From NCBI GenBank assembly GCA_046328215.1, contig JAXLXA010000002.1, forward strand, positions 18,799 to 82,798: a stretch of DNA of 64,000 nt. Reading direction: 5' to 3'. A program made the translations under genes and the position numbers. The stretch comes from Dehalococcoidia bacterium. Its GTDB lineage: Bacteria > Chloroflexota > Dehalococcoidia > Tepidiformales > Tepidiformaceae. The notes under the pieces are model-generated. The model was not told where the DNA came from and did not search any database. It saw nothing but the letters and a program-made list of their open reading frames with translations. Shown in pieces: positions 3,498 to 45,070 of this stretch (its first letter is position 1; each line of letters starts with the position of its first letter).

Positions 3498-4862
<1,365 letters not shown>

Positions 4863-4889
4863 GCCGCGAGTCTAGTACGAAGCTCATGA

Positions 4890-5255
4890 ATCCGCCGAAC
4901 CGACTCAGCCCTCAGTACGCGTCCACGGATCAGGGTGTCGGAGTGGACGGAACCGCGACCCTTGCCGGAGCGGCTCACGGCTTAGTGAGAGAGCCGCGCG
5001 GTAGCCACCCACCATCCGGGCTCACGAACTCGCTCGCTGACTCGTGACCTGGTGGCCTGGTCACGATCCGCTCCCGATGGGTCGCGGTTCAACGACGGGT
5101 GGCGGTTGGATGCGGCCTGCCCTGCTCAGTCCTCAGTCCTTTGCACTTTTCACCTTGTCCCGTAGTGGCTGGCGCGTGGCTGTGTCGCTAAGCCACGATC
5201 CGCTTACTGTCGTGCACGGTTCGACTTGGCGTGGCGCCCTACTCAGTCCTCAGTA
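4890..5255. repeat. Left part of repeat array 1: a diverged unit plus one ~135 bp unit carrying (CTCAGTC)n, and a solo IS630-like terminal repeat at ~4905-4940
   Basis: tcagccctcagtacgcgtccacggatcagggtgtcgga at ~4905-4940 matches the left TIR of the IS at 5256. Unit 5130-5253 matches the units at 6480-6905. Confidence 0.7.
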
Positions 5256-5267
5256 CGCGTCCACGGA

Positions 5268-5750
5268 TTAGGGTGTCGGAATGGGGAAACGGTTGGATTG
5301 AGGGGGTGCCATGACGCGGGTGAGTGAGGCAGAGGTCCAGTTGAAGGGGTGAGCGCGTGCGTTCCAGCGAGCGATGTACTGCAGGATCGCAGCCGCGAGT
5401 TCATCGCAGCTCGGGTAGTTTGCCAGGCGCAGGAGCTTGCGTTGGATGATCCCGAACCATTGCTCGACCTGGTTTAGCCAGGAGCAGTGGACCGGCGGGA
5501 AGTGGAAGGCAAAACGTGGATGTTCGGCGAGCCAGGCCTCGGCGGCCGTGCCTTTATGGACACGAAGGTTGTCGAGGACGACGTGGATCGTCCGGATCGC
5601 CTGCAGGGTGTAAGCATCGAGCCACTCCAGGAACGAGAGAAACTCGGTCGCCCGCTTCCGTGCGGCCGTCATTCCGACAACGTTCCCGCTGCGAGTGTCG
5701 AAGGCCGCGAAGAGGTTGAGTGCACCGCTGCGTTCGTACTCGTGCTCTAC
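5268..5750 (-). pseudogene. IS630-family transposase, C-terminal DDE part (orfB). The frame continues upstream without ATG (…VEHEYERSGALNLFAAFD…), so a frameshift is needed to join orfA.
   Basis: Motifs HVVLDNLRVHK and SWLNQVEQWF (second D and E of DDE). The out-of-frame upstream peptide EHEYERSGALNLFAAFDTRSGNVVG is typical of IS630 transposases. Confidence 0.7.
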
Positions 5751-6397
5751 CTGGACTGTCTTGCCGCAACGGGCGGGCCGCGTGGCTGCAACCGCTTCCT
5801 CGGCTGTAGGCTCGTCTTTTCGTCGAGGCAGATCACTGTCTCATCAGGGCTCAGCCGCCGGGTGTACAAGTCGATGATTGAGCTCACCTGCTGCGCGAAG
5901 GCGAGGTCGCGGGGGACCCGGCGCGAAAGCCACGCGTGCCAGCGCCAGGGTCGGAGTTGATGATGGCGCAGGACCCGGCGGACCGTCTCGGCGGAGATGC
6001 CTTCGACGATCCCTTCGTCTACCAGTTGCCGAGCGATCTCGGTGCAATCCCACTGGCCGAGCGGCACCCCGCGCTCCTCCGGCAACTCGCACGCCATCTT
6101 CACGATGTGGACGGCTACCTTAGGGGAAAAGATCGGCTTTCGGCCGCGGCCAGTCCGGTCGTTGAGGCCCGCTAATCTCTCCCTCTCGTAGCGTCGCCCC
6201 CACTTCCGTACGATGCGGACGCCCAGCCCACAATCTTCGGCAGTCTCCCGCTCCGACACCTTCGCATCCAGAAGCAAGATAGCCCGCGCTCGTCTCCAGT
6301 GACCCACCGGGAGCGTGGTCATCCGGCAGCGGCGTTCCAATTCCGCTCGTTCCTCATCGGTGAGTGCGATCTGAAAGCTGAGCTTGCGGCCTCGCAT
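5747..6397 (-). CDS. IS630-family transposase, N-terminal HTH part (orfA) ending at the ...CLDEKTSLQ motif
   Basis: Typical IS630 N-terminus (helix-turn-helix, ...VICLDEKTSLQ first catalytic Asp region). The reading frame then shifts. Confidence 0.75.
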   Translation of the reverse strand: MRGRKLSFQIALTDEERAELERRCRMTTLPVGHWRRARAILLLDAKVSERETAEDCGLGVRIVRKWGRRYERERLAGLNDRTGRGRKPIFSPKVAVHIVKMACELPEERGVPLGQWDCTEIARQLVDEGIVEGISAETVRRVLRHHQLRPWRWHAWLSRRVPRDLAFAQQVSSIIDLYTRRLSPDETVICLDEKTSLQPRKRLQPRGPPVAARQSR

Positions 6398-6479
6398 GCA
6401 ATCCCTCGTCCTGCCACCACCTTAAGTATCCCTATCGATCACTTACTCAGCAATTCAGACACCCTAATCCGTGGCGGCG

Positions 6480-6905
6480 TACTCAGTCCTCAGTCCTCAG
6501 TCCTCAGTCCTCAGTCCTTTGCACTTTCACCTTGTCCGGTGATGGCTACCGCGTGGCTGTGTCGCTAAGCCACGATCCGCTTACTGTCGTGCACGGTTCG
6601 ACTTGGCGTGGCGCCCTACTCAGTCCTCAGTCCTCAGTCCTCAGTCCTCAGTCCTCAGTCCTTCGCACTTTCGACCTGGTGATGGCTACCGCGTGGCTGT
6701 GTCGCTAAGCCGTGATCCGCTTACTGTCGTGCGCGGTTCGACTTGGCGTGGCGCCCCACTCAGTCCTCAGTCCTTTGCACTTTTCACCTTGTCCCGTGGT
6801 GGCTGGCGCGTGGCTGTGTCGCTAAGCCACGATCCGCTTACTGTCGTGCGCGGTTCGACTTGGTGTGGCGCCCCACTCAGTCCTCAGTCCTTTGCACTTT
6901 CGACT
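6480..6905. repeat. Repeat array 1, right part: ~3.5 tandem units of ~140 bp with variable (CTCAGTC)n tracts (n=4, 5, 2, 2)
   Basis: Repeated ...tttgcactttcaccttgtcc.ggtgatggct.gcgcgtggctgtgtcgctaagccacgatccgcttactgtcgtgc.cggttcgacttggcgtggcgcc..actcagtcctcag... Internal hairpin cgtggct-N9-agccacg. Confidence 0.85.
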
Positions 6906-6909
6906 CCAC

Positions 6910-7959
6910 TCAGTCGTCTGCGTCTTCCGGCTGCGGCGCGCTTGATCCGACCACCGTGGTCCGCGCTGGAATCTCCTTGGCGATGCCGCGTAGCGTGTCC
7001 ACCACCTTATTGTCGACAGCGTCGCGGGCGGCGCGGATGGCACTGAAGATAGCGCGGGCGTTGGAGCGGCCATGGCCGATGATGACGATGCCGTCGACTC
7101 CGACGAGCTGGGCGCCGCCGTATTCGGCGTAGTCCAGGCGCCGTCGCACTTTTCGCAGTTCGGACATGAGGATCAGGCCGGCGGCGCGGTTCCAGGGAGT
7201 CAGTTCCACCGCCTTGCGGATCTCGCCCAGCAGCAGTTCGGCCATGCCCTCCGCGGTCTTGAGGACGACGTTTCCGGTGAAGCCGTCCATGACGGCGACG
7301 TCGCAGACCCCCTTGGTCAGGTCCTTGCCCTCGACGTTGCCCATGAAGTTGAGACGGCTCGCGCGGAGGGCTTCGTTGACTTCGATCGTGAGCTGGTTGC
7401 CCTTTGTGTCTTCTTCGCCGATGGAGAGGAGGCCGACCTTCGGGCTTTGGACCTTGAACATGCGCTCCATGTAGGCGGCGCCCATGTAGGCGAACTGCAG
7501 CAGGTGAATCGGCCGGCAGTCGGCGTTCGCGCCAACGTCGAGGAGCATCGTCAGGCGGCCCTCGCCGGTCGGGAAGATGGTGGCCAGGGCCGGGCGGCCG
7601 ATGCCCTTGATGCGGCCGAGCGTGAGCAGGGCCGCCGCCATCGTCGCGCCGGTGTTGCCGGCGGTGATGAAGGCGTCCGCCTTCCCTTCTTTGACCATGC
7701 GCAGGCCAACGTTGATCGAACTGTTCGGCTTGTTTTTCGCTGCTTCGGCCGGGTGTTCGTCCATCGCGATGACGTCCGGGGCGTCGACGATCTTGAAGTT
7801 GCTGGCCCTGGCGCCTTCCATTTCCGCTTCGATGGCCGCGCGCCGGCCGACGAGGATGAGCTCGACGCCGAGCCCGCCGGCCGCCATGAGCGCGCCCGCG
7901 ACGATCTCGCCGGGCGCGTTGTCCCCGCCCATCGCATCGACCACGATTCGAGCGGTCAT
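6910..7959 (-). CDS. plsX: phosphate acyltransferase PlsX
   Basis: MTARIVVDAMGGDNAPGEIVAGAL..., GNTGATMAAAL and GFTGNVVLKTAEG motifs. Confidence 0.9.
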   Translation of the reverse strand: MTARIVVDAMGGDNAPGEIVAGALMAAGGLGVELILVGRRAAIEAEMEGARASNFKIVDAPDVIAMDEHPAEAAKNKPNSSINVGLRMVKEGKADAFITAGNTGATMAAALLTLGRIKGIGRPALATIFPTGEGRLTMLLDVGANADCRPIHLLQFAYMGAAYMERMFKVQSPKVGLLSIGEEDTKGNQLTIEVNEALRASRLNFMGNVEGKDLTKGVCDVAVMDGFTGNVVLKTAEGMAELLLGEIRKAVELTPWNRAAGLILMSELRKVRRRLDYAEYGGAQLVGVDGIVIIGHGRSNARAIFSAIRAARDAVDNKVVDTLRGIAKEIPARTTVVGSSAPQPEDADD

Positions 7960-23726: not shown

Positions 23727-24025
23727 GGGTTTGCCTCCATGTGGGACTCGAGGTCGTCGAGTTTTGATGACCAGAACTTGCGGTAGCGTTGGAGCCACGT
23801 ATCTAGCTCGTGGAGCGGGCGAGGGTTCAGCCGGTAAATCCGTGCCTGGCCTTCGGCCGTCGATGTCACGAGCCCGGTCTCCCGAAGGACCTTGAGATGA
23901 TGGGAGATCGCCGGCTGGGTGAGGTTGAACATGCTGACGACCTCGTTGACGCTCCGCGGACGGACGGCAAGCGACTCCACGATTCGCACACGGACCGGGT
24001 CAGCGAGAGCCTGCAATGCATTCAC
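23723..24025 (-). CDS. ArsR/SmtB-family transcriptional regulator
   Basis: LADPVRVRIVESLAVRPRSVNEVVSMFNLTQPAISHHLKVLRETGLV. Confidence 0.85.
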   Translation of the reverse strand: MNALQALADPVRVRIVESLAVRPRSVNEVVSMFNLTQPAISHHLKVLRETGLVTSTAEGQARIYRLNPRPLHELDTWLQRYRKFWSSKLDDLESHMEANP

Positions 24026-24120
24026 AGACGTTTATATAAACAACAATCAATGTGACGTCAACGACCAGGCATTGGAGAGTTTGTGGTTGAATCCCACTCA
24101 CCCGAGCCTCGGAGCCCGAA

Positions 24121-25305
24121 ATGACGCCCTACGAACGCATCGACCATGCCATTGACGAAGCCAGCGCCGCGCTGCGCAATCTCAGCCTCGAAATCCACTC
24201 GCACCCGGAACTGAACTTCGAGGAGCACCATGCCCACCAGGTGCTCACGGACTACCTGGACGGCGAAGGATTCGAAGTGGTGCGCGGGGCGTACACCATG
24301 CCCACCGCATTCAAGGCGGTGGCCGGCAACGGCGGGCCAACGGTCGCGGTCATCTCGGAGTACGACGCGCTGCCCGGCATCGGCCACGCTTGCGGGCACA
24401 ACCTGATCGCGATCGCCGGCGTGGGCGCGGGCGTGGGTCTCAGGGCGGGCCTCGAAGGCGTCGCGGGCACGGTGGTTATCCTCGGCAGCCCGGCCGAAGA
24501 AGGCGGGGCCGGCAAGCAGATCCTGATCGAACAGGGCGCGTTCGCCGGCATTGATGCAGCTCTGATGGCACACCCGGCCCCTGCCGACAGCGCGACCCCG
24601 AAGGTCCAGGCGCTGCAGGCGCTCAAGGTGGAGTACTTCGGCCGGAACGCCCATGCGGCGGCGATGCCCTGGAACGGCGTCAACGCCCTCGACGCCCTCG
24701 TGTCCGGCTACAACGCGGTTTCGATGCTTCGCCAGCGGATCAAGCCGACTGACCGGGTGCACGGCATCTTCACAGACGCGGGCCTGAAGCCGAACATCAT
24801 CCCGGACTACACGGCAGCCGATTACTACGTCCGTTCGGCGACGATGGCCGAGCTTTCCGAGCTGAAGGCGAAGGTGCAGGCCGCGCTCGAATCGGGCGGC
24901 GCGGCAACGGGCTGCCGGGTTGAGCTGACGTGGGTGGGTCGCGCGTACACCGACCTGGTTTCGAACGACCCGCTGGCTACCCGCTACTGCGCGCACATGG
25001 AGGAGCTCGGCCTGCCCGTGGGGAAGATCCCGTGGTTCGGCGCCAGCACGGACATGGGGAACGTGAGCTACGTGGTGCCGACCATCCACCCGATGTTCGG
25101 CATCCCGAGCGACCCGATGAACGCGAACCACACCGCGCCGTTTACCGAGGCCGCCGCGACGGAAGAGGCGCACGAGCGCACCATCCGCGTGGCCAAGGCA
25201 ATGGCCCGCGCGGCCTATGACGCGATCACCCAGCCGGAGTTGCTCGCCTCGATGAAGCGAGACTTCGTTGCGAACGTGCCGGCGCCGGGCGACCCGCTGA
25301 GGTAG
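24121..25305 (+). CDS. M20D-family amidohydrolase (aminoacylase/hippurate hydrolase-like)
   Basis: HACGHN metal-binding motif. 394 aa. Divergent from the arsR operon, with an AT-rich intergenic region containing TGACGTCA. Confidence 0.8.
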   Translation: MTPYERIDHAIDEASAALRNLSLEIHSHPELNFEEHHAHQVLTDYLDGEGFEVVRGAYTMPTAFKAVAGNGGPTVAVISEYDALPGIGHACGHNLIAIAGVGAGVGLRAGLEGVAGTVVILGSPAEEGGAGKQILIEQGAFAGIDAALMAHPAPADSATPKVQALQALKVEYFGRNAHAAAMPWNGVNALDALVSGYNAVSMLRQRIKPTDRVHGIFTDAGLKPNIIPDYTAADYYVRSATMAELSELKAKVQAALESGGAATGCRVELTWVGRAYTDLVSNDPLATRYCAHMEELGLPVGKIPWFGASTDMGNVSYVVPTIHPMFGIPSDPMNANHTAPFTEAAATEEAHERTIRVAKAMARAAYDAITQPELLASMKRDFVANVPAPGDPLR

Positions 25306-25351
25306 CCTTCGGGTAGGGAAAATCGGGCACTGCGCGAGGTAGAGTGCTCGC

Positions 25352-26860
25352 ATGACGACTCGGCCAACCGGGCGACAGCGCGGGCGCCCGCCTTACCCAC
25401 TGCTCACTCCAGCCGAAGAGCGGGTCCTCCAGTTCATCCGCAAGGGCCACACAAACGGCGAAATCGCTGAGCGCCTGGGCGTCAGCCTCGACGCCGTGAA
25501 GTACCACGTCTCGAACATGCTCGGGAAGTTGGAGCTCCGCAGCCGGGAAGAGCTCGCGGGCTGGCGCCCCCAGCGCAACCCGCTGGCGCGGCTCTGGGGT
25601 GCGATCCCGCTGGCGGTGAAGCTCGGCGCGGGCGGCGCCGTGGCAACGGCGGTGGCTGGCGGCGCGGTGCTTGCCGCGCTCAGCCCCGCCGCGGAGGCGC
25701 CGCTCTACGAGGGCGTTGTGACGGTGGGCTACGACGGCCAGCCCGCCAACGGCAGTTCGGAGATGCTCCAAATCTCGGGCGACGGGAGGTACGTCGTCTA
25801 CGCGTCCTGGGCGAGTAACCTCGTGCCCGACGACCAGGACACGCAGATGGACGTGTTTCGGTTCGACCGTGAGACGAACAAGACTGAGCTGGTGAGCATC
25901 GATGAAACAAGTGCTGACGGTGGCGCGGGCTGGCCGCAGGTGTCCAATGACGGCAGGTTCGTCGCCTACAGCTCCGCGGGAAGCGAGGGCCGCCCCCGGG
26001 CTGTCGTACGAGATATGAGCACCGGCGCCGCGTCTTTCATCGCGGATGACTTCACCGGCGCGCCGGCGCTCTCGGGAGATGGGCGGTTCCTTTCGACAAT
26101 GCGAAACGACGAACCGGGGGTGATGTTCCCGAAAGGCACGCTCCTGATTTACGACGTTTATCAGGGTTCGGTGGCCTGGTCAGTGCCGGTCGACAGGGAG
26201 GTAGACCCGCTGTTTATCGGGCAAGAGTTCAGGCTCTCCATGGACGGGCGCTGGCTCGCGTTCCTGGCCGGGGAAGTCCCGGGAGCCACGTGCGAGCGGC
26301 GAGTGACCTCGATACAGATCAATGGGATCACGAGAGATGTCCCGTTGCGGCGGCCTTTTGTGCACGATCTTGTGACAGGAGAGACGTGGTGTACGCCGAT
26401 CGGAGACGCCGCCGACATTGCATCCCAGCCCGGGCCGCTCGGCATGTCTGGTAACACGCTCGTGTACGGAATCAGCCGGTGGGAACCGGACAGCCGGATA
26501 GTTATCGACAGCCAACTTGCGTTGTACGACATGGGATCTCGCCACGTCCACTATCTGACCAGGGCGGGAGAGCCGTTCTTCGGCACCGACATCGCTCCCG
26601 GGGCTGCCAATAACGGACGGATCCTGGCGATTCTGAACAATCCCGCGCAATCCCAGCGAGGCCAGGTCAATGGCATCCTGTGGATGGGCGCCGGCAGCGA
26701 ACGCGAGGTGGTTGAACGACCGGCGCGGTTTGAGGACTGGGGATTGTCACACTCTGAGCCCGTCCTCTCGGAGGACGGCCGCTCCCTGGCCTTCGCCGTG
26801 CGCGGTCAGGACCGCACGAGTGGCTCGCAAGTCCAGGACATCTACGTTGTGAGCCGCTGA
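25352..26860 (+). CDS. membrane-anchored LuxR/GerE-type HTH regulator with extracytoplasmic TolB/PD40-like beta-propeller domain
   Basis: N-terminal LTPAEERVLQFIRKGHTNGEIAERLGVSLDAVKYHVSNMLGKL. One TM helix (AIPLAVKLGAGGAVATAVAGGAVLAAL). PD40-like repeats (GDGRYVVYASWASNLVPDD..., SNDGRFVAYSS). Confidence 0.8.
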   Translation: MTTRPTGRQRGRPPYPLLTPAEERVLQFIRKGHTNGEIAERLGVSLDAVKYHVSNMLGKLELRSREELAGWRPQRNPLARLWGAIPLAVKLGAGGAVATAVAGGAVLAALSPAAEAPLYEGVVTVGYDGQPANGSSEMLQISGDGRYVVYASWASNLVPDDQDTQMDVFRFDRETNKTELVSIDETSADGGAGWPQVSNDGRFVAYSSAGSEGRPRAVVRDMSTGAASFIADDFTGAPALSGDGRFLSTMRNDEPGVMFPKGTLLIYDVYQGSVAWSVPVDREVDPLFIGQEFRLSMDGRWLAFLAGEVPGATCERRVTSIQINGITRDVPLRRPFVHDLVTGETWCTPIGDAADIASQPGPLGMSGNTLVYGISRWEPDSRIVIDSQLALYDMGSRHVHYLTRAGEPFFGTDIAPGAANNGRILAILNNPAQSQRGQVNGILWMGAGSEREVVERPARFEDWGLSHSEPVLSEDGRSLAFAVRGQDRTSGSQVQDIYVVSR

Positions 26861-26880
26861 CCGGGGCGCGCCCGCCAGGC

Positions 26881-27432
26881 TCAGCGCCGGTGTTCGTTGG
26901 CGTATTGCTCGCGCAGCCCGTTGAGCTTCGCCCAGGTCTCGCGGGGAACGAGGTCATTGATCGCTTTCGCCACTCGCTCCCAGTCGTCGGCCTGTCTCTC
27001 CACAACGGGAGACTCGACGCGGACCGTCCGGCCGCCGGCGACCGCCTGGAGCGAATCGACAGCGCCGCCAGCGGACCCGTCGTCTCGCGATCGCCAATCC
27101 GTGGTGAACAGCCCGCGTTTCACCAGTGACTGGTAGACGCCGTCGAGCTCGGCGGGCGTCAGCGAGAAGGATTCTCTCCATTCGGGCGGTGCGTTGAACG
27201 AGTAGTCGGGCACCAGGACGATTTCGCCGTGGCCCTCGTGGTCCAGGGTGATGGTGTATTCGTAGTGGCCCGGCGGCGGCAGACTTCCCTCCTGCCAGGT
27301 GTACGTCAGCGCGAAGTCGGCCGGGAGCGAAGCGGGCGGTTCTGGTTGGCCGTCGTCGCGTGAGCAGGCGGAGAGCCCGGCGAACGCAAGCAAGGCGCCG
27401 ACCGCGAGCGCAAGTGCGAACCGCAACGACAT
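26881..27432 (-). CDS. hypothetical lipoprotein
   Basis: Signal peptide with lipobox MSLRFALALAVGALLAFAGLSAC. Start at the internal Met of ORF 26881..27594. Confidence 0.55.
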   Translation of the reverse strand: MSLRFALALAVGALLAFAGLSACSRDDGQPEPPASLPADFALTYTWQEGSLPPPGHYEYTITLDHEGHGEIVLVPDYSFNAPPEWRESFSLTPAELDGVYQSLVKRGLFTTDWRSRDDGSAGGAVDSLQAVAGGRTVRVESPVVERQADDWERVAKAINDLVPRETWAKLNGLREQYANEHRR

Positions 27433-27627
27433 GGTCGTGCCTCCACGCAGGCCTGAGCCTGCAAGCGTCCTTTTGCCCCCGCCGGGAGCATACGCCTGTT
27501 GGGAAGGGGGTAGCGCTGTGGATCGCTGCGTGGAGAAGGCGACTGGCGGCCGTGTGGCCTGGACTTGCCCGCTCCCTGCCCGGTCGCGGCTCATGGGAGG
27601 CCTGTGAGCGAACCCCGACGCGCGACG

Positions 27628-28746
27628 CTAGACTCCGAGCCGGCGGTCGTTCTCGGCCCAGGCGACGTCGTTTAGCGCCATCAACCCGCCCGAGACCAGC
27701 GAGTGTCCGCCGAGGAGGACCGGGATCGGGGCTTCCGCCGCTGCCCTGGTGAAACGGCGAAGGAACGGGTCTTCGATGGCTTCCCAGGCGAGCAGGTCGC
27801 TCTGGAAGCGGTCTTCGCGGGAGGGTTCGACGCCGAGGTGGGCTTCGATGACGCGGGTGTCGATGACGGCCCCGTCGCCAAGCTCGGACATGCGCTGGAA
27901 GAAGCGCTCGACGCCGACTTCCTCGATCAGAAAGCCAAGCACGCTGCGGGCGCGGTAGCCCGGAGGGGCGGTGGCGAGGCCTCGCTCCTCGGCGAAGAGG
28001 CGCACGCGGCAGGCCGTTTCGCGCTCCAGGTACTGCCATGCCTGGCTGCCGCCGACCCGGCCCGCGACGACCACCTGCCTCGTGCGGTCGCAGAGCAGCG
28101 GCATGAACATACGGTAGCGCGCTGCCGCGCTGGCCGCCGGGCGCGCGGCCTCCGCCAGCTCTGGCGGCAGCCCCTCCGAGAGCGAGAGGACGGCGAGGTC
28201 GCTCGGCGTGTCCAGGTCGAACTGGGTGGCGGTGGTGCGGGGAAGGATGACCGAGGCGAGCCCCGCGTCGTCGCGGAGCTTGCGTGGCAACAGGTTGTCG
28301 CGTGCGAAGTCGCCGCAGCGCTCGATGGCGTCGCCGGGCGTCCATGCCGTGAGGTCCGCCGAGAAGAAGTTGTTGGTGACGAAGCGCGGCTCGCGGGACT
28401 CGAGCTGTTCGACTACGAGGCGGAACTCGTCAACGCCGAGGAGCGGGACGGAGCCAGAGCCCATGGTCGCGGGCTTCTGCAGGCCGTAGCGCGCGACGAT
28501 GCCGCGAAGGCGCGCGGCGAACTCGAACGGCTCACCGGGGCGGTCGGCGTCGATGAGGAGGCCGGAGAACGTGGGGGCGAACGTCTCGGGCGCATCGGTG
28601 GCGACGATGACCGCTTCGAAGCCGGCGGCGAGCGCCGAGCGGGCGGTGTTGCGGGCGGCGGCGATTCGCGCGGTTGCCAGCATCGTTTCGGCCGGGCCAT
28701 CGCCGGTGCCGCCGTGGACGATGACGAGGACCGGGCGTTCGAACAC
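27628..28746 (-). CDS. hypothetical protein (N-terminal nucleotidyltransferase-like region?)
   Basis: 372 aa. N-terminus MFERPVLVIVHGGTGDG. No confident family assignment. Confidence 0.5.
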   Translation of the reverse strand: MFERPVLVIVHGGTGDGPAETMLATARIAAARNTARSALAAGFEAVIVATDAPETFAPTFSGLLIDADRPGEPFEFAARLRGIVARYGLQKPATMGSGSVPLLGVDEFRLVVEQLESREPRFVTNNFFSADLTAWTPGDAIERCGDFARDNLLPRKLRDDAGLASVILPRTTATQFDLDTPSDLAVLSLSEGLPPELAEAARPAASAAARYRMFMPLLCDRTRQVVVAGRVGGSQAWQYLERETACRVRLFAEERGLATAPPGYRARSVLGFLIEEVGVERFFQRMSELGDGAVIDTRVIEAHLGVEPSREDRFQSDLLAWEAIEDPFLRRFTRAAAEAPIPVLLGGHSLVSGGLMALNDVAWAENDRRLGV

Positions 28747-28817
28747 GAGTTCAGGTTAGCCGGGCGCGGCGCTGGGCGCATGGCACCGCGGGCGGATGCG
28801 CTCTCTATACTATCCGC

Positions 28818-29459
28818 GTGGTCCAGGCAGACTATCCGGGTTCTATCGCGGGCGAGGAGCTTGAGCTGCGCCCGTGGGCGGATGACCTCGCGGTGCAGAT
28901 GGCCAACTGGAGCGTACGCGGGTTCCCGTTTCATGCGTTCGACCTCGGCCACCTGAAGGACCCGCTGAAACGCGCGAGCGCAGTAGCCGGGTGCCGGGAG
29001 GATGGGCCGCATCGCCATTTCGTCGCGGTGGAAGACGGCATGGCGGTGGGGCGCGTGTCGGTGAACCTGCGGGACCCCGCGGGCTGCTACCTGTGGTCGG
29101 TCCACGTGCCGCCGGAACACGAAGGGCGCGGCGTCTGCCGGCGGATGCTGGCGGCGCTGATGGTCTACCTCGAACGCACGAACCCGCGTCCGAGCTTCAT
29201 CCTGACGACGAACAGCTTCGCGGAGCACGCGCACCGGGCGTACCGGGCGCTGGGCTTCGAGATTGCCGAGACGCGCTGGCACTTCGACCGGGAGATTGCA
29301 GAGGCGCTGTGGCGGGTAAGCCCGCGGGAGCGGGAGCCGCTGGCCCGCCACATCCGCTTCCAGAACGGCCGCTGGCAGGTTCGGAGTTTCGTGATGCGGC
29401 GGGAGCCGGGCGTGCCGATGATCACGCGGGTGGAGGCGCCGCGGGCGGTGGGGGCGTGA
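28818..29459 (+). CDS. GNAT-family N-acetyltransferase
   Basis: HEGRGVCRRMLAALMVYL...RAYRALGFE, an acetyl-CoA binding-like core. Confidence 0.6.
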   Translation: MVQADYPGSIAGEELELRPWADDLAVQMANWSVRGFPFHAFDLGHLKDPLKRASAVAGCREDGPHRHFVAVEDGMAVGRVSVNLRDPAGCYLWSVHVPPEHEGRGVCRRMLAALMVYLERTNPRPSFILTTNSFAEHAHRAYRALGFEIAETRWHFDREIAEALWRVSPREREPLARHIRFQNGRWQVRSFVMRREPGVPMITRVEAPRAVGA

Positions 29460-29499
29460 TGGGGCGATTGTGGATTGGCGGGGTGGGCTGGCTTCTGGA

Positions 29500-30062
29500 G
29501 TTCGAGTGAGTTCGGCCACCCGCTTACTGCCGTGCGCGGTTCGGACTGAGGACTGAGTCGCCAGAGGTCATCGAATCGTGTGGGTCGGGCGTCGCAGCCG
29601 CTCCCTTGCAGTCGCGGCTACGGCCTGGCGGTGGTGTGGGTTCGGCCACCCGCTTACTGCCGTGCGCGGTTCGGATGGGGCGTGCGAGGGCGCGGTCAAT
29701 GGACCGTGTGGGTTGGGCGTCGCAGCCGCTCCCTTGCGTTCGCGGCTACGGTTTGGTGGTGGTGTGAGTTCGGCCACCCGCTTACTGCCGTGCGCGGTTC
29801 GGATGGTGGGCGCGGTCAACGGACCGTGTGGGTTGGGCATCGCAGCGCCCCTTGCGGTCGCGGCTACGGTTTGGGTCGGTGGTGTGAGTTCGGCCACCGC
29901 TTACTGCCGTGCGCGGTTCGGATGGTGGGCGAGGTCAACGGACCGTGTGGGTTGGGCATCGCAGCGCTCCCTTGCGGTCGCGGCTACGGTTTGGTGGTGG
30001 TGTGAGTTCGGCCACCCGCTTACTGCCGTGCGCGGTTCAGATGGGGGCGTGCGAGGGCGACG
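29500..30062. repeat. Repeat array 2: ~4.5 tandem units of ~128 bp containing the core ccgcttactgccgtgcgcggttcgg. The first unit also carries gactgaggactgag (reverse-complement heptamers).
   Basis: Units gagttcggccacccgcttactgccgtgcgcggttcggatggtgggcg.ggtcaacggaccgtgtgggttgggc.tcgcagc.ctcccttgcggtcgcggctacggtttggtggtggtgt. The last unit supplies the PP2C stop codon. Confidence 0.85.
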
Positions 30063-30793
30063 GTGATGTTGTCCGGCCCACCTGCTTCGTTGGCCAGTTC
30101 GATCAGCCGGCGCGTCGCTTCTCCAGGCTCGTACGCGCCAAGCACGCCGGCGATCGCGGCATCGGCGACCGGTCCGAACAGTCCGTCGCTGCAGGCGAGG
30201 AGCGTCTCGCTTTCGGCGAGCGTGAACGGGCCGCGGATGTCGGGGTCCACAGCGAGTTCGAAGCCGATGGTGCGCGTCACGACATTTCGATAGGGGTGGA
30301 GCCGAGTTTCCGCGGGGTCGAGCAGGCCCTGTTCGACCTGGTCCTGGACCCACGAGTGGTCGCGGCTGAGCTGGCGGAGGCCGTCCGGGCCGTGGAAGTA
30401 GAGCCGGCTGTCGCCGATGTTGAGCCACCAGTATTCGAGCCCGTGGAAGAGGGAGAGGACGAGGGTGGTGGCGGCGCCAACGGCGTTGAGCGTGCGTGCT
30501 TCGGCGCGGACCTGCCAGTTGATGCGGCGAACAGCTTCGCGGAGGGCGGCGTCGGGCGCCATGACGGTGAGCAGCGGGCCGAGTTCGACCGCCAGCAGTT
30601 CGAGCGTGCGCGAACTGGCCCAGTCGCCGCGGGCGTGACCGCCGAGGCCGTCCGCGACGGCGAGCAGCGTCCAGCCATCGGCGCCGGAGAGACCGCCCGC
30701 GAAGTAGGCGTCTTCGTTGCGGCGGCGGTTTCGGCCGATGTCGGAGCGCGCGGAAAGCTCAAGGCGCACGGTGCTTATAGGGTATTCAAACAT
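30020..30793 (-). CDS. PP2C-family Ser/Thr protein phosphatase
   Basis: RSDIGRNRRRNEDA...LAVADGLGGHARG...DGLFG...GGPDNITV motifs. The C-terminal codons and stop are encoded by a repeat unit. Confidence 0.85.
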   Translation of the reverse strand: MFEYPISTVRLELSARSDIGRNRRRNEDAYFAGGLSGADGWTLLAVADGLGGHARGDWASSRTLELLAVELGPLLTVMAPDAALREAVRRINWQVRAEARTLNAVGAATTLVLSLFHGLEYWWLNIGDSRLYFHGPDGLRQLSRDHSWVQDQVEQGLLDPAETRLHPYRNVVTRTIGFELAVDPDIRGPFTLAESETLLACSDGLFGPVADAAIAGVLGAYEPGEATRRLIELANEAGGPDNITVALARPHLNRARQ

Positions 30794-30973
30794 GTATAGG
30801 TAAAGGCTATCGCGGTGGTATCCGTTATGGGTTGAATGATCTAGCAGTGGCGGATGGACCGGCGTAGCGTATTGGGGTGACCGGTAGGAGAGCACAAAGA
30901 TAGCTGCTCAGGGTGCTCAACCGGCCTCAGGGCGAGACGGCTGGATGCCGTCAGAAGGACAATCGCAAACCCA

Positions 30974-33906: not shown

Positions 33907-35616
33907 ATGCCATACAAGCCCACGGGACGGCCGCCGGGCAGGCCGCGCCACCCGGAGCCGCTCACGCCAGCCGAACAGCGGGTCCTCCGCTACCTCCGCC
34001 AGGGCAGGACGAATGCCGAGATCGCGGACGCACTCGATGTCTCGCCCGACGCGGTGAAGTACCACGTCTCGAACATGCTGGGGAAGCTCGAACTCGAGAG
34101 CCGCGAGCAACTTGCCGCCTGGCGCGAGCCGTCGCCGGTTCTGCGCGCGTGGGCGGCGATGGGCGGGCTCGGGTGGAAGCTCGCCGGCGGCGCGGCCGCA
34201 CTGGTTGTGGCGACCGGCGTGGGCGTCGGGGGCTGGCTCCTCCTGCGCGGAGACGGTTCTGGGACCGAACCCGCCGACTTGAGCGCCCTGGCAACCGGCG
34301 TCCTGAGCATCGGCATCGACGGCCAGCCGGCGAATGGTCCGTCGCTCAGCCCGTCGATCTCCGATGACGGCCGCTTTGTCGCGTTCGAATCCGAAGCCAC
34401 GAACCTCGTGAAGGACGATACGAATGGCGTCAGTGACATCTTCGTCGTTGACCGGGCCGACCGTTCCATCCGGCGCGTCTCGCTCGCGCCCGGCGGGAAG
34501 GAGGCGAACGGCGCCTCGCACCGCCCGGCGATTTCGGGTGACGGCAAGTGGGTCGCGTTCGACTCCGAGGCCAGCAACCTCGTGAAGGACGACGTGAACG
34601 GGGAGCTGGACCGGGTGCTGGCTCATGTTTCCGAAGGCTTCTTGGAGTCGTTCGGTGACAACTCGGACGGACGGGACGCGTTCGTCGCCCAGCGCGCGAC
34701 GTGGGCCGGCAGTGATGTTTTCGTCGTGGAGTTGAAGACAAAGAAGGTGGACATCGTCTCGCTCACTACTTCCGGAGAGCGCGGCGACCTCGGTTCGTTC
34801 TGGCCGACAATTTCACGAGATGGCCGATATGTGGCGTTCGAGTCATCGGCGCCGAACCTCGTGGGAGAGGTACGCGCGCGCTTGGCACCGCCCGCGATAC
34901 TCCGTGTCTCCGGCTTCAGTACCGATGTTTTCGTCCGAGACCGAGACCGCCGGACGACGACGAGGATCTCGATTGGAAACGACGGGACCAAGCCCTTCAT
35001 GAGCAGCGTTGGGCCGGTCATTACGCCGGACGGCCGATTCCTTTCGTTCGTCTCAGGCGAGCCGGCGCTGGCCGGTCCGCGTCAGAGGCAGATCCTGAGC
35101 GGATACGTCTGGAGCAGGGACACTGGGAAGCTGCGCGTCATTCCAGACCCGGAGTTTCCCAGCGGGATGGACTCCGTGTTCGTGGTGGAGTTTTCGCGAA
35201 TAGCGCTCTCCGCCGACGGTACGACTCTGGCGTATCAGGCGACCTTCGGTCTTTCCAACACGGCCCGGGAGCAGACTGAACTCAGGGGGTGTTTCGCCCA
35301 GGTCGCGGGGGAGAACGCCTCGCGCGTGGTGGACTCGACAGCCCCAGAGTGCACCGTATCGGCTGGCGCGAACGCTCCAGCTTTGCTTGACCGGGAAGTG
35401 GTATACCCGACCGCGAGCGGCGGCGGGGTCAGGACTTATGCTTTGGACACCAGGCAGACGGCGGTGACAAGCCTTCCCACCGGATTCGATGCGCTCTTTC
35501 AGCCGGCCGCCGCGAGCGGTCAGACCGGGAAATGGATTGTGGGCACTTCGGCGTTCGGTGCGTGGTTGGATGCCGATGGGCAACTGCGAGTGCAGGTGGT
35601 TGTGTTGGCAAGGTAA
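33907..35616 (+). CDS. membrane-anchored LuxR/GerE-type HTH regulator with extracytoplasmic TolB/PD40-like beta-propeller domain (paralog of 25352..26860)
   Basis: LTPAEQRVLRYLRQGRTNAEIADALDVSPDAVKYHVSNMLGKL. TM helix. PD40-like DDGRFVAFESEATNLVKDDTNGVSDIFVVDR, GDGKWVAFDSEASNLV. Confidence 0.8.
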   Translation: MPYKPTGRPPGRPRHPEPLTPAEQRVLRYLRQGRTNAEIADALDVSPDAVKYHVSNMLGKLELESREQLAAWREPSPVLRAWAAMGGLGWKLAGGAAALVVATGVGVGGWLLLRGDGSGTEPADLSALATGVLSIGIDGQPANGPSLSPSISDDGRFVAFESEATNLVKDDTNGVSDIFVVDRADRSIRRVSLAPGGKEANGASHRPAISGDGKWVAFDSEASNLVKDDVNGELDRVLAHVSEGFLESFGDNSDGRDAFVAQRATWAGSDVFVVELKTKKVDIVSLTTSGERGDLGSFWPTISRDGRYVAFESSAPNLVGEVRARLAPPAILRVSGFSTDVFVRDRDRRTTTRISIGNDGTKPFMSSVGPVITPDGRFLSFVSGEPALAGPRQRQILSGYVWSRDTGKLRVIPDPEFPSGMDSVFVVEFSRIALSADGTTLAYQATFGLSNTAREQTELRGCFAQVAGENASRVVDSTAPECTVSAGANAPALLDREVVYPTASGGGVRTYALDTRQTAVTSLPTGFDALFQPAAASGQTGKWIVGTSAFGAWLDADGQLRVQVVVLAR

Positions 35617-35893
35617 CAGACATCCTTGACGCTGTGGCACGTGAGTCCGCGCTCCCCATCAGTCGCAGCCCAGACGAAGGGCCACTAACAAACGCGACAC
35701 TGTTTGTCGCGCATGACCGCTATCCATAAGACGTGGACTCCGTGTACAGGAACTATCAAGGATCGGCGGACGCGACGATAACGGATGGAGCAGCTATCCT
35801 GATTCGTCTACGGTGCCCCCGGGATCGCACCGGGCGGGCACACTCACCCCGCCGATTGTCCCGCCGGGGCTATCCCTATCTGGAGTCCAGGTC

Positions 35894-43917: not shown

Positions 43918-44706
43918 ATGCGATTGCCTTGCGGGTCGCTCCCGCGCAACGATGCGACGGTGACCCACTTCTTGCGCGATTCCCACGGACGCCCGGTGGA
44001 CCTCGAAATCGAAGTGCACACCGCGCGTTCGCCGCAGGAATTGCCCCCGTGCCCGTGGCAATTCCCGGATCCGAGGGGAACCGACGAGCGTGGGTTCATC
44101 GGCTTCGGGGCGGACTTCGCGCCGGCGACGATTGTCGCGGCATACCGCGGCGGCATCTTCCCGTGGCCACACAGCGAGGCCGAGTTCGCCTGGTTTTCGC
44201 CCGATCCCAGAGCGGTGATCCCGCTGCAGGGGCTACGCATCTCGCAACGCCTCGGCCGGACGTTGCGGAGCGGGCGCTTCCGCTACACCGTGGACGCCGC
44301 GTTCGGGCGGGTGATGCGCTCCTGCGCGGCGGGGCGCCCCGAAGGCACCTGGATCACGGACGCGCTGGTCGAGGGGTACTGCCAGCTGCACGCGCTTGGC
44401 TGGGCGCACAGCGTCGAAGTTTGGAGCGCGAACGGGCGGTTGGCCGGCGGGCTGTACGGCGTGGCGGTGGGTAGCATGTTCGGCGCCGAATCGATGTTCC
44501 ACCGCCAAACGGACGCCTCGAAGGCGGCGATGGCGGCACTCGTCCAGCACGCGGCCAGCATCGGCGTGGAGCTCCTGGACGTCCAGGTCCTGACCGAGCA
44601 CACCGAACGCATGGGCGCGGTCGAGATACCGCGTGCCGAGTACCTGAGGAGGCTGGAGGAGGCGGCTGGCAGGCGTGTGGATTGGACGGATGGAGTCAGC
44701 GGGTGA
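43918..44706 (+). CDS. aat: leucyl/phenylalanyl-tRNA--protein transferase
   Basis: YRGGIFPWP...WFSPDPRAV...GGLYGVAVGSMFGAESMFH motifs. The last codons lie in repeat array 3. Confidence 0.85.
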   Translation: MRLPCGSLPRNDATVTHFLRDSHGRPVDLEIEVHTARSPQELPPCPWQFPDPRGTDERGFIGFGADFAPATIVAAYRGGIFPWPHSEAEFAWFSPDPRAVIPLQGLRISQRLGRTLRSGRFRYTVDAAFGRVMRSCAAGRPEGTWITDALVEGYCQLHALGWAHSVEVWSANGRLAGGLYGVAVGSMFGAESMFHRQTDASKAAMAALVQHAASIGVELLDVQVLTEHTERMGAVEIPRAEYLRRLEEAAGRRVDWTDGVSG

Positions 44707-45070
44707 GGGGAGGGAGCGTGGTGGGCTCGCGCGCGGCGACCCGTGCTGGTGTAGGAGCGCAGCGCTTACTGCGTGCGCGCCTCGGATTTGCAGGCGGAAG
44801 GGCGTGTGGATTGGATGGGTGGAGGCAGCGGGTGAGGGGAGGGAGCGTGATGGCTCGCGCGGGGCGACCCGTGCTGGTTTAGGAGCGCAGCGCTTACTGC
44901 GTGCGCGCCTCGGATTTGCAGACGGAAGGGCGGGTGGGGTGGAGGGTGGGAGTCAGCGGGTGAGGGCAGGGAGCGTGGTGGCTCGCGCGCGGCGACCCGT
45001 GCTGGTTTGCGAGCGCAGCGCTTACTGCGTGCGCGCCTCGGATTTGCAGATCGCGAGGATCGAGGCCGGT
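44690..45070. repeat. Repeat array 3: three tandem ~126 bp units with the core cgcttactgcgtgcgcgcctcggatttgcag
   Basis: gcgggtgagggg.gggagcgtg.tgg.ctcgcgcg.ggcgacccgtgctggt.t.ggagcgcagcgcttactgcgtgcgcgcctcggatttgcag..gg repeated three times. Confidence 0.85.

Follow-up and report, generated by a model that had tools for sequence, protein, structure and literature searches.

The class 3 TnpA-Y1 proteins (annotated RayT) are divergent relatives of the IS200/IS605 transposase TnpA and of TnpA-REP, the enzyme associated with repetitive extragenic palindromic (REP) sequences. Class 3 HUH-Y1 genes have been described in Planctomycetes, Acidobacteria and some Proteobacteria (Quentin et al. 2018, BMC Genomics 19:475; PMC6006769). 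Atypical hairpins flank the genes and have CnGA as their 5′ foot; Solibacter usitatus is reported to have about 600 copies, and the hairpins of Table S1 in that study (CCGAGCCGCGACCGTAAGGGAGCGGA, CAGAGCCGCGACCGTCAGGGAGCG and similar) fold as ((((..((....))..)))). Here we analyse three tandem repeat arrays in a stretch of 64,000 nucleotides (the window; G+C content 66%) from a Dehalococcoidia bacterium of the phylum Chloroflexota (assembly GCA_046328215.1, contig JAXLXA010000002.1, positions 18,799 to 82,798 of the forward strand). The arrays are very probably clusters of REP-type hairpins of the class 3 HUH-Y1 family that have grown by local tandem duplication. They are selfish repeats of a known kind, unusual in their arrangement, and not a new system.

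The likeness to class 3 REPtrons lies in the architecture of the hairpin, in the foot of part of the copies, in high copy number, and in the sequence of one of the two hairpin types found here (B-type), which is nearly identical to the published one. In both cases hairpins flank an HUH-Y1 gene of ~165-180 aa with N/THxH and YV...Q motifs. The other hairpin type (A-type, with an AC/GT upper stem and a GC/AA internal loop) is, by contrast, absent from the published table, and Chloroflexota are not among the class 3 host phyla given in PMC6006769. Furthermore, that study has gene-flanking and dispersed copies, whereas the copies described here form head-to-tail arrays with periods of 70-140 nt. 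A second hairpin type, a Chloroflexota host and the direct-array organisation therefore go beyond what has been published for this little-studied family.

The REPs and bacterial interspersed mosaic elements (BIMEs) of E. coli and Pseudomonas are associated with TnpA-REP (RAYT groups 2 and 3), which cuts and rejoins single-stranded DNA next to the REP hairpin (PMC8266576). They too are short imperfect palindromes with a 5′ guide-like foot, are intergenic and found chiefly at gene 3′ ends, and are tied to a single-copy HUH-Y1 gene. However, the foot here is CnGA/TCGA instead of GTAG, with no GTAG beside any copy, and the hairpin is shorter and weaker. The copies are mostly direct repeats (17 out of 17 in the window lie on the + strand) and not alternating inverted pairs, and the sequence is conserved over phyla, whereas theirs is species-specific. 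REPINs are REP doublets that form hairpins (Bertels and Rainey). They may have a counterpart in inverted doublets of ~160 nt (117-118 nt from start to start) in the same Dehalococcoidia population, but none of the 17 window copies belongs to an inverted doublet, and direct arrays dominate the population (93 of 112 adjacent pairs). IS200/IS605 elements and palindrome-associated transposable elements (PATEs), their gene-less derivatives, also have subterminal hairpins that are recognised by HUH-Y1 enzymes on single-stranded DNA. Both of their end hairpins share one strand and such an element moves as a whole, whereas here flanking copies are inverted and arrays grow in place. Finally, TIRYTs are tyrosine transposase genes with long terminal inverted repeats instead of GTAG REPs, and include a distinct Acidobacteria group (Di Nocera et al. 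2013; PMC3733652). One of the loci described below (L150) resembles them in having ~65-nt inverted arms with a terminal hairpin.

Three arrays with a shared hairpin core

Arrays were detected by running Tandem Repeats Finder (TRF) on the window, and copies of the core and of the REPs were located by pattern scan. All three arrays proposed in the initial annotation are real and share a core of 22-25 nt. TRF called array 1 at 6482-6901 (periods 140 and 117, 89-92% matches), array 2 at 29506-30046 (period 119, 4.4 copies, 88% matches) and array 3 at 44672-45050 (period 128, 3.0 copies, 92% matches). Identity within arrays is 88-92% by this measure, slightly lower than the >90% first given. The core CGCTTACTGNCGTGCNCG occurs 9 times in the window, compared with 0.1 occurrences expected from chance; the count rises to 12, all on the + strand, when the array-3 form (shorter by one base) is included. 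Together with 5 B-type copies the window contains 17 REPs in a single orientation. One B-type copy is located in array 1 (5068-5092) and the other four alternate with A-type copies in array 2, at spacings of 78 nt (A to B) and 52 nt (B to A). Arm and hairpin are common to the arrays, but spacer sequences differ from array to array.

On the − strand the core reads TCGA-A-CCGC-GC-AC-GACA-GT-AA-GCGG, that is, a foot (C/T)CGA and one further base, followed by a hairpin whose 4-bp stem CCGC/GCGG is separated by a 2x2 internal loop from an upper stem of 2 bp, with a loop of 3-4 nt at the tip. The A-type cores of arrays 1 and 2 fold as ((((..((....))..)))), while the array-3 REPs have a covarying stem GCGC...GCGC and a 3-nt loop. 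The A-type has the upper stem AC/GT and the internal loop GC/AA; in the B-type (CCGCTCCC....GGTCGCGG) the upper stem is CC/GG, and its core is the reverse complement of class 3 REPs in Table S1 of PMC6006769, for example CCGAGCCGCGACCGTCAGGGAGCG. The foot is CCGA in the 8 A-type copies of arrays 2 and 3, TCGA in the 4 copies of array 1 and TTGA in the B unit, with the final GA constant. A REP-like family had been among the possibilities first considered, and the hairpin indeed fits the REPs of class 3 TnpA-Y1 enzymes. A weak B-type-like match with 3 mismatches was also seen at 35650-35671, in the intergenic region after the open reading frame (ORF) 33907-35616. Its stem does not pair, and it is therefore regarded as a chance match or a decayed copy.

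The hairpin CGTGGCT-N9-AGCCACG that had been noted in array 1 is a different one, with a genuine 7-bp stem. It forms part of the arm, because the arm recurs in B-type versions of the ~160-nt elements of the population, which carry GGCTACCGCG(C/T)GGCTGT.TCGCTAAGCC..GAT. A compensatory change is seen in this arm hairpin (CGTGGCT/AGCCACG versus CGCGGCT/AGCCGTG). The B-type hairpin, an insertion sequence (IS) within array 1 and the link to HUH-Y1 (RayT-like) enzymes were all absent from the initial annotation.

Conservation across phyla and a probable HUH-Y1 partner

One genome per species (596 Gb in total) was scanned with the pattern CGCTTACTGN{0,1}CGTGCNCG, yielding at least 116 loci. By record title, the matches listed are mostly from Planctomycetota, Acidobacteriota (Bryobacterales), Lentisphaerae, Myxococcota, Chloroflexota and Armatimonadota. 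Chance alone was estimated to yield a few hundred matches to the pattern in 596 Gb. Among the matches listed, 80-89% continue with G(C/T)TC and about 75% have a preceding C; the conserved unit amounts to 22-23 nt, CCGCTTACTG(A)CGTGCGCGGCTC, and conservation stops outside it. The core CCGCTTACTG(N)CGTGCGCGG(C/T)TC varies hardly at all among metagenome-assembled genomes (MAGs) of at least six phyla, with almost every base conserved, so that the family is not genome-specific as had been proposed. Single copies of it occur, and so do inverted pairs with a separation of 10-25 nt and short direct arrays. A second motif, CCGCTCCCTGACGGTCGCGGCTC, is often found near core matches, and is the reverse complement of published class 3 REPs (B-type). 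No recurrent neighbouring gene family was found among the matches listed (116 loci), and a search of the full-text literature for the core sequence matched only unrelated primers.

A scan for the HUH...Y motif led to the transposase. In a Lentisphaerae MAG (L047), a protein of 182 aa with the motifs THFH ... YVIHEQ is encoded with A-type copies on both sides. It matches Pfam Y1_Tnp with E = 6e-4, below the curated cut-off, but most of its 673 homologues have a precomputed Y1_Tnp match and many bear the JGI name 'REP element-mobilizing transposase RayT'. In an alignment of 21 sequences, the two HUH histidines, the Y....Q tyrosine motif, a tryptophan and an HGST motif are all invariant. A sub-threshold Rfam Acido-Lenti-1 match (27 bits versus a cut-off of 37) at 1937-1982 of L047, ~4 kb from this REPtron, is unrelated to the hairpin.

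HUH-Y1 genes with flanking hairpins were found at 8 loci, representing 6 distinct REPtrons (see table), and every HUH-Y1 gene context that was examined has flanking hairpins. L143 makes a seventh, with an exact REP on its upstream side and a less strict match on the downstream one. At L132/133 and L131, inverted B-type copies lie 5-25 nt from the start and stop codons, and at L130 a CCCC/GGGG variant is placed directly upstream of the start and again overlapping the 3′ end of the gene. In a Chloroflexota MAG of the Phototrophicaceae (L127-129), a B-type copy overlaps the first ~13 annotated codons, an A-type copy covers the stop codon, and a second A-type copy follows ~30 nt downstream. Because both A-type and B-type hairpins flank HUH-Y1 genes, we regard them as one system. 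The database gene calls P0005, P0021, P0070 and P0093 for the transposase have N- or C-terminal extensions that are translated flanking hairpins (NPSRDRKG, SRDRQGA, TVREGVL). Such repeats extend ORFs spuriously, and are probably also the source of many small 'hypothetical proteins'.

The organisation of the repeats closer to the window was assessed with a metagenome scan using CCGCTTACTGYCGTGCGCGGTTCG, which retrieved 58 loci, 46 of them from assembly WBZP01. These contain 196 copies (141 A-type and 55 B-type), a density that reflects the choice of loci by motif and is not a genome-wide estimate. Among the 112 adjacent pairs no more than 300 nt apart, head-to-tail orientation accounts for 93, divergent for 14 and convergent for 5; the spacing of direct pairs clusters at 67-86 nt. 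Divergent pairs with a fixed spacing of 117-118 nt make up palindromic elements of ~160 nt (L142 1751-1900, L162 5982-6130, L180 2332-2480 and similar loci) that are bounded by a hairpin of array-2 type on one side and of array-3 type on the other. These look like internally deleted REPtrons, REPIN-like or PATE-like.

Two of the 58 metagenome loci encode an HUH-Y1 enzyme. At one of them, L150, three hairpins precede a gene of ~165 aa (NHVH ... YVLNQQ), the nearest having its end 13 nt ahead of the first codon in the alignment, and a single hairpin lies 46 nt past the stop codon; inverted arms of ~65 nt end in the hairpin. The right arm and hairpin, GGTGTGAGTCTGGCCAC-CCGCTTACTGCCGTGCGCGGTTCGGAT, are identical to array 2 at 50 of 53 aligned positions. 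The source metagenome of L150, WBZP01, also holds the strain of the window (L149 and L200, at 99.9%).

Base pairing was tested across copies by using one helix as an anchor and leaving the other free. The upper stem is Watson-Crick paired in 305 of 322 copies (AC/GT 238, CC/GG 54, GC/GC 10, CT/AG 3) and the lower stem is paired in 315 of 389 (with forms that include CCGC/GCGG 289, GCGC/GCGC 17, which is the array-3 form, ACCC/GGGT 4, CCCC/GGGG 3). All abundant stem forms pair, and unpaired combinations are rare singletons. By these counts, both helices of the hairpin are maintained via compensatory changes.

Several observations weigh against assignment of the arrays to class 3. The foot TCGA of array 1 and the foot TTGA of the B unit depart from strict CnGA. 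Folding of the hairpin is weak (-5 to -7 kcal/mol), with z-scores that are not significant when compared to shuffled sequence. The A-type copies of the genome scan were chosen by a pattern in which both the AC half and the GT half of the upper stem are fixed, and only the non-A types are therefore independent evidence for pairing; moreover, REP copies within a genome share descent. As for the enzyme, a profile search of solved structures gave one non-significant match, to an IS200 transposase (E = 0.66), and tblastn of the transposase against the 64-kb window gave no match. Placing L150 in the same genome as the window relies on co-occurrence in a metagenome and near-identical arms and not on physical linkage, and cleavage of the hairpin by class 3 enzymes would be expected by homology.

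Growth of the arrays and competing explanations

The arrays are reproduced, along with their junctions, by independent assemblies at 99.85-99.9% identity. L009 aligns to window positions 8293-6279 at 99.85% identity and spans three array-1 units and the IS junction, L149 aligns to 23929-29812 at 99.86% and reaches the start of array 2, and L198-L201 cover array 3 free of gaps at 99.9%, with copy number equal in four assemblies. Many short-read contigs break at the arrays, as expected for repeats. It is hardly credible, then, that the arrays are an artefact of collapsed or expanded repeats, or a degenerate CRISPR array: whole units of 117-140 bp repeat at 88-92% identity, in place of short repeats with unique spacers, and no cas genes were seen adjoining the arrays. 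The initial annotation had likewise rejected a CRISPR.

The comparison of copy number among relatives, one of the checks originally suggested, revealed differences at the aat, PP2C and plsX sites. After aat, the distant relative L208 has no REP; in the close relative L206, whose Aat is 97% identical, one A-type REP follows the stop codon at a distance of 60 nt, and the window has three units of 128 bp. Every array-3 unit is made up of a copy of the final ~35 nt of aat, a spacer and an A-type REP, and the first unit overlaps the final 11 codons of the gene. The Aat tail (...VDW...) is conserved in relatives, and units 2 and 3 are thus copies of the native gene end together with its REP. This overlap had been noticed originally, but read in the reverse direction: the array does not supply the last codons of aat, it copies them. 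Since the units copy a native gene end, growth occurred by local tandem duplication.

At the PP2C site, the relative L167 (~90% identical) has 2 A-type REPs 72 nt apart and no B-type, compared with 9 REPs (5 A-type and 4 B-type) in the window. As had been reported, array 2 supplies the stop codon of the PP2C gene (30020-30895, − strand): its last A-type REP encodes the final 7 codons and the TAA, and the protein ends ...NRARQ-TAA inside a REP in both the window and L167. In the sister species L134 and L137-139 (nucleotide identity 79-85%), plsX is followed by a spacer of 69 bp that contains one degenerate REP-like sequence, whereas same-species contigs have 5-7 units in varying mixes of A-type and B-type. 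L004 has one array-1 unit more than L009.

We propose that the hairpins are non-autonomous, with the gene for the enzyme located elsewhere in the genome. Homology with related enzymes predicts that the class 3 protein recognises the hairpin when folded on single-stranded DNA, and that it cuts and rejoins the DNA beside it; its action on the window copies is likewise a prediction. Each array would start as one or two REPs at a gene 3′ end, and would grow by repeated tandem duplication of a segment of 117-140 bp made up of the REP, an arm of ~40 nt and neighbouring host DNA. The duplication might proceed by enzyme-mediated strand transfer between neighbouring REPs, or by slippage or unequal recombination of direct copies. 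GC skew gave too weak a signal to assign the lagging-strand template. The effect on the host is most likely neutral to mildly disruptive, the elements rewriting gene 3′ ends such as the PP2C stop.

Alternatively, the arrays might be protein-binding or chromosome-organising sites recruited by the host, with copies kept for function, as with the BIMEs of E. coli, to which IHF, gyrase and Pol I bind. The location at gene 3′ ends or between convergent genes would suit such a role, as would the shared orientation of the window copies, the constant copy number of array 3 in four assemblies and a core conserved over phyla. This last feature is, however, accounted for by the flanking transposase, if the transposase recognises the core as its homology suggests. 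Copy number differs widely among close relatives, sites in sister lineages are empty, the spacers are specific to each array, and no candidate binding protein was identified. Recruitment by the host is therefore improbable.

A structured RNA had also been put forward, and the units could in principle be a small RNA or a cis-acting RNA element in tandem, such as a 3′-UTR stabiliser or a terminator. Every unit has a hairpin, arrays 2 and 3 are directly downstream of + strand genes in the same sense, and E. coli REPs are known to stabilise upstream mRNA (PMC3733652). When folded, the hairpin forms but whole units are no more structured than shuffled sequence (z = -0.03 to -1.9). Rfam covariance models did not match the arrays at either gathering or E <= 1 thresholds, and at 8 loci of other phyla gave only spurious miRNA-model matches to long inverted pairs; a tRNA/tmRNA scan found none. 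No promoter-like or intrinsic-terminator-like sites were seen in 4800-7000, array 1 is antisense to both of its neighbour genes, and units of different arrays are unrelated beyond hairpin and arm. An RNA function is very improbable on these grounds.

That the units are miniature inverted-repeat transposable elements (MITEs), as first suggested, or fragments moved by a DDE transposase such as that of the IS630-family element in array 1, has next to no chance of being correct: despite the presence of this element and a second, solo end, the units abut directly, lack terminal inverted repeats and TA target-site duplications, and share no sequence with the IS ends, same-species contigs keep the array without the IS, and arrays 2 and 3 have no IS.

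Insertion sequence, gene ends and significance

Array 1 is flanked by plsX and a FAD oxidase gene (both − strand), array 2 by a GNAT gene (+) and the PP2C gene (−), and array 3 by aat (+) and a RidA-like gene (−). The tandem units originally assigned to 4890-6905 are present, but the array is not continuous. It consists of a solo IS end, two units, an IS630-family insertion and three further units, the last ending 4 nt short of the plsX stop codon (6910-6912).

Coordinates of the arrays, their REPs and the IS630-family sequences in the window, with the loci of the HUH-Y1 REPtrons
Feature	Position or locus	Strand	Remarks
Solo left end, IS630-family element	4900-4946	+	Preceded by CTCAGCCCTCAGTA; left edge of array 1, no repeat unit
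Two array-1 units	4990-5253	+	Left of IS insertion
Array-1 unit with B-type REP hairpin	4990-5124	+	CCGCTCCCGATGGGTCGCGGTTCAA at 5068-5092; pattern scan
Array-1 unit with A-type REP hairpin	5125-5253	+	REP 5200-5224; separated from other units by IS
IS630-family insertion sequence	5254-6481	−	Frameshifted transposase, ORFs 5747-6397 and 5268-5672
Three array-1 units, 117-140 bp	6482-6905	+	A-type REPs 6577-6601, 6717-6741, 6834-6858
Array 2, 4.4 units of 119-130 bp	29506-30046	+	Alternating A-type and B-like REPs
Array-2 A-type REPs	29520-29545, 29650-29675, 29778-29803, 29897-29922, 30016-30041	+	Pattern scan
Array-2 B-like REP starts	29599, 29727, 29846, 29965	+	Pattern scan
Array 3, three 128-bp units	44672-45050	+	A-type REPs 44762-44786, 44890-44914, 45018-45042
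Distinct REPtrons	L047, L127-129, L130, L131, L132/133, L150		Flanking hairpins

The IS630-family insertion has Pfam HTH_32/HTH_29 and DDE_3 domains, inverted repeats at 5256-5282 and 6453-6479, and TA on each side; this is the sole long inverted repeat in 4880-6520, and the junction is confirmed in contigs L009 and L004. The solo end has 91% identity over 47 nt to 5238-5284, the junction of the intact IS, and a CTCAG.CCTCAGTA sequence precedes both. Same-species contigs L001, L003 and L155 have neither the insertion nor the solo end, with units retained in L001 and L003. Instead of the IS parts, these contigs have ~560 bp that contain two small ORFs (62 and 54 aa), a difference suggestive of a deletion linked to the IS at the left edge of array 1 in the strain of the window. 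The unit type at 4990-5124, which matches class 3 REPs of Table S1 in PMC6006769, is also found in L001 and L003.

Each of the units in 6482-6905 comprises (CTCAGTC)n with n = 2-6, a spacer, the 7-bp arm hairpin and an A-type REP. The heptamer belongs to a module of ~33 nt, CCCACTCAGTCCTCAGTCCTTTGCACTTTCAAC, found in the window at 5125-5156, 6482-6530, 6619-6675, 6759-6790 and 6876-6905; in two array-1 units the (CTCAGTC)2 part of the module has been enlarged to 5 and 6 copies. The module also adjoins the first REP of array 2 (29546-29559), there as its reverse complement. Derivation of the heptamer from the plsX stop region was considered and dropped, given that the module recurs at no fewer than 9 other loci of the same population (including L152, L168, L176, L179, L187 and L192), mostly near REPs. 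In the sister species L134 (5040-5065), the plsX end GAG GAC TGA reads TCAGTCCTC on the opposite strand and matches the CTCAGTC module; a degenerate REP lies directly after this stop region. The window equivalent at 6905-6915, GAC GAC TGA or TCAGTCGTC, bears only a partial resemblance to it. From these sequences, the 3′ end of plsX may be derived from the element, like that of PP2C.

A more far-reaching interpretation, which we consider doubtful, is that class 3 enzymes spread their hairpins mainly by one-ended cut-and-rejoin between neighbours and not by REPIN-style transposition, so that arrays build in place, capture host gene ends and act as fast-changing 3′-end modules, with A-type and B-type as the two ends of one enzyme. 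If this were true, the two types, as ends recognised by one enzyme, would explain the near-invariance of the core over at least six phyla, and the arrays would supply stop codons and C-terminal tails to their host genes.

The identification of the arrays as class 3 REP clusters has a practical side, since such repeats break metagenome assemblies and give rise to spurious ORFs and extensions, with peptides such as SRDRKGA and TVREG in annotated proteins. The series of sites with 0, 1 and 3 copies provides natural material for the study of REP cluster growth and the rewriting of gene 3′ ends. Through the identification, a repeat widespread in phyla that are poorly studied (Planctomycetota, Acidobacteriota, Lentisphaerae, Myxococcota, Chloroflexota and Armatimonadota) also obtains a name and a partner enzyme.

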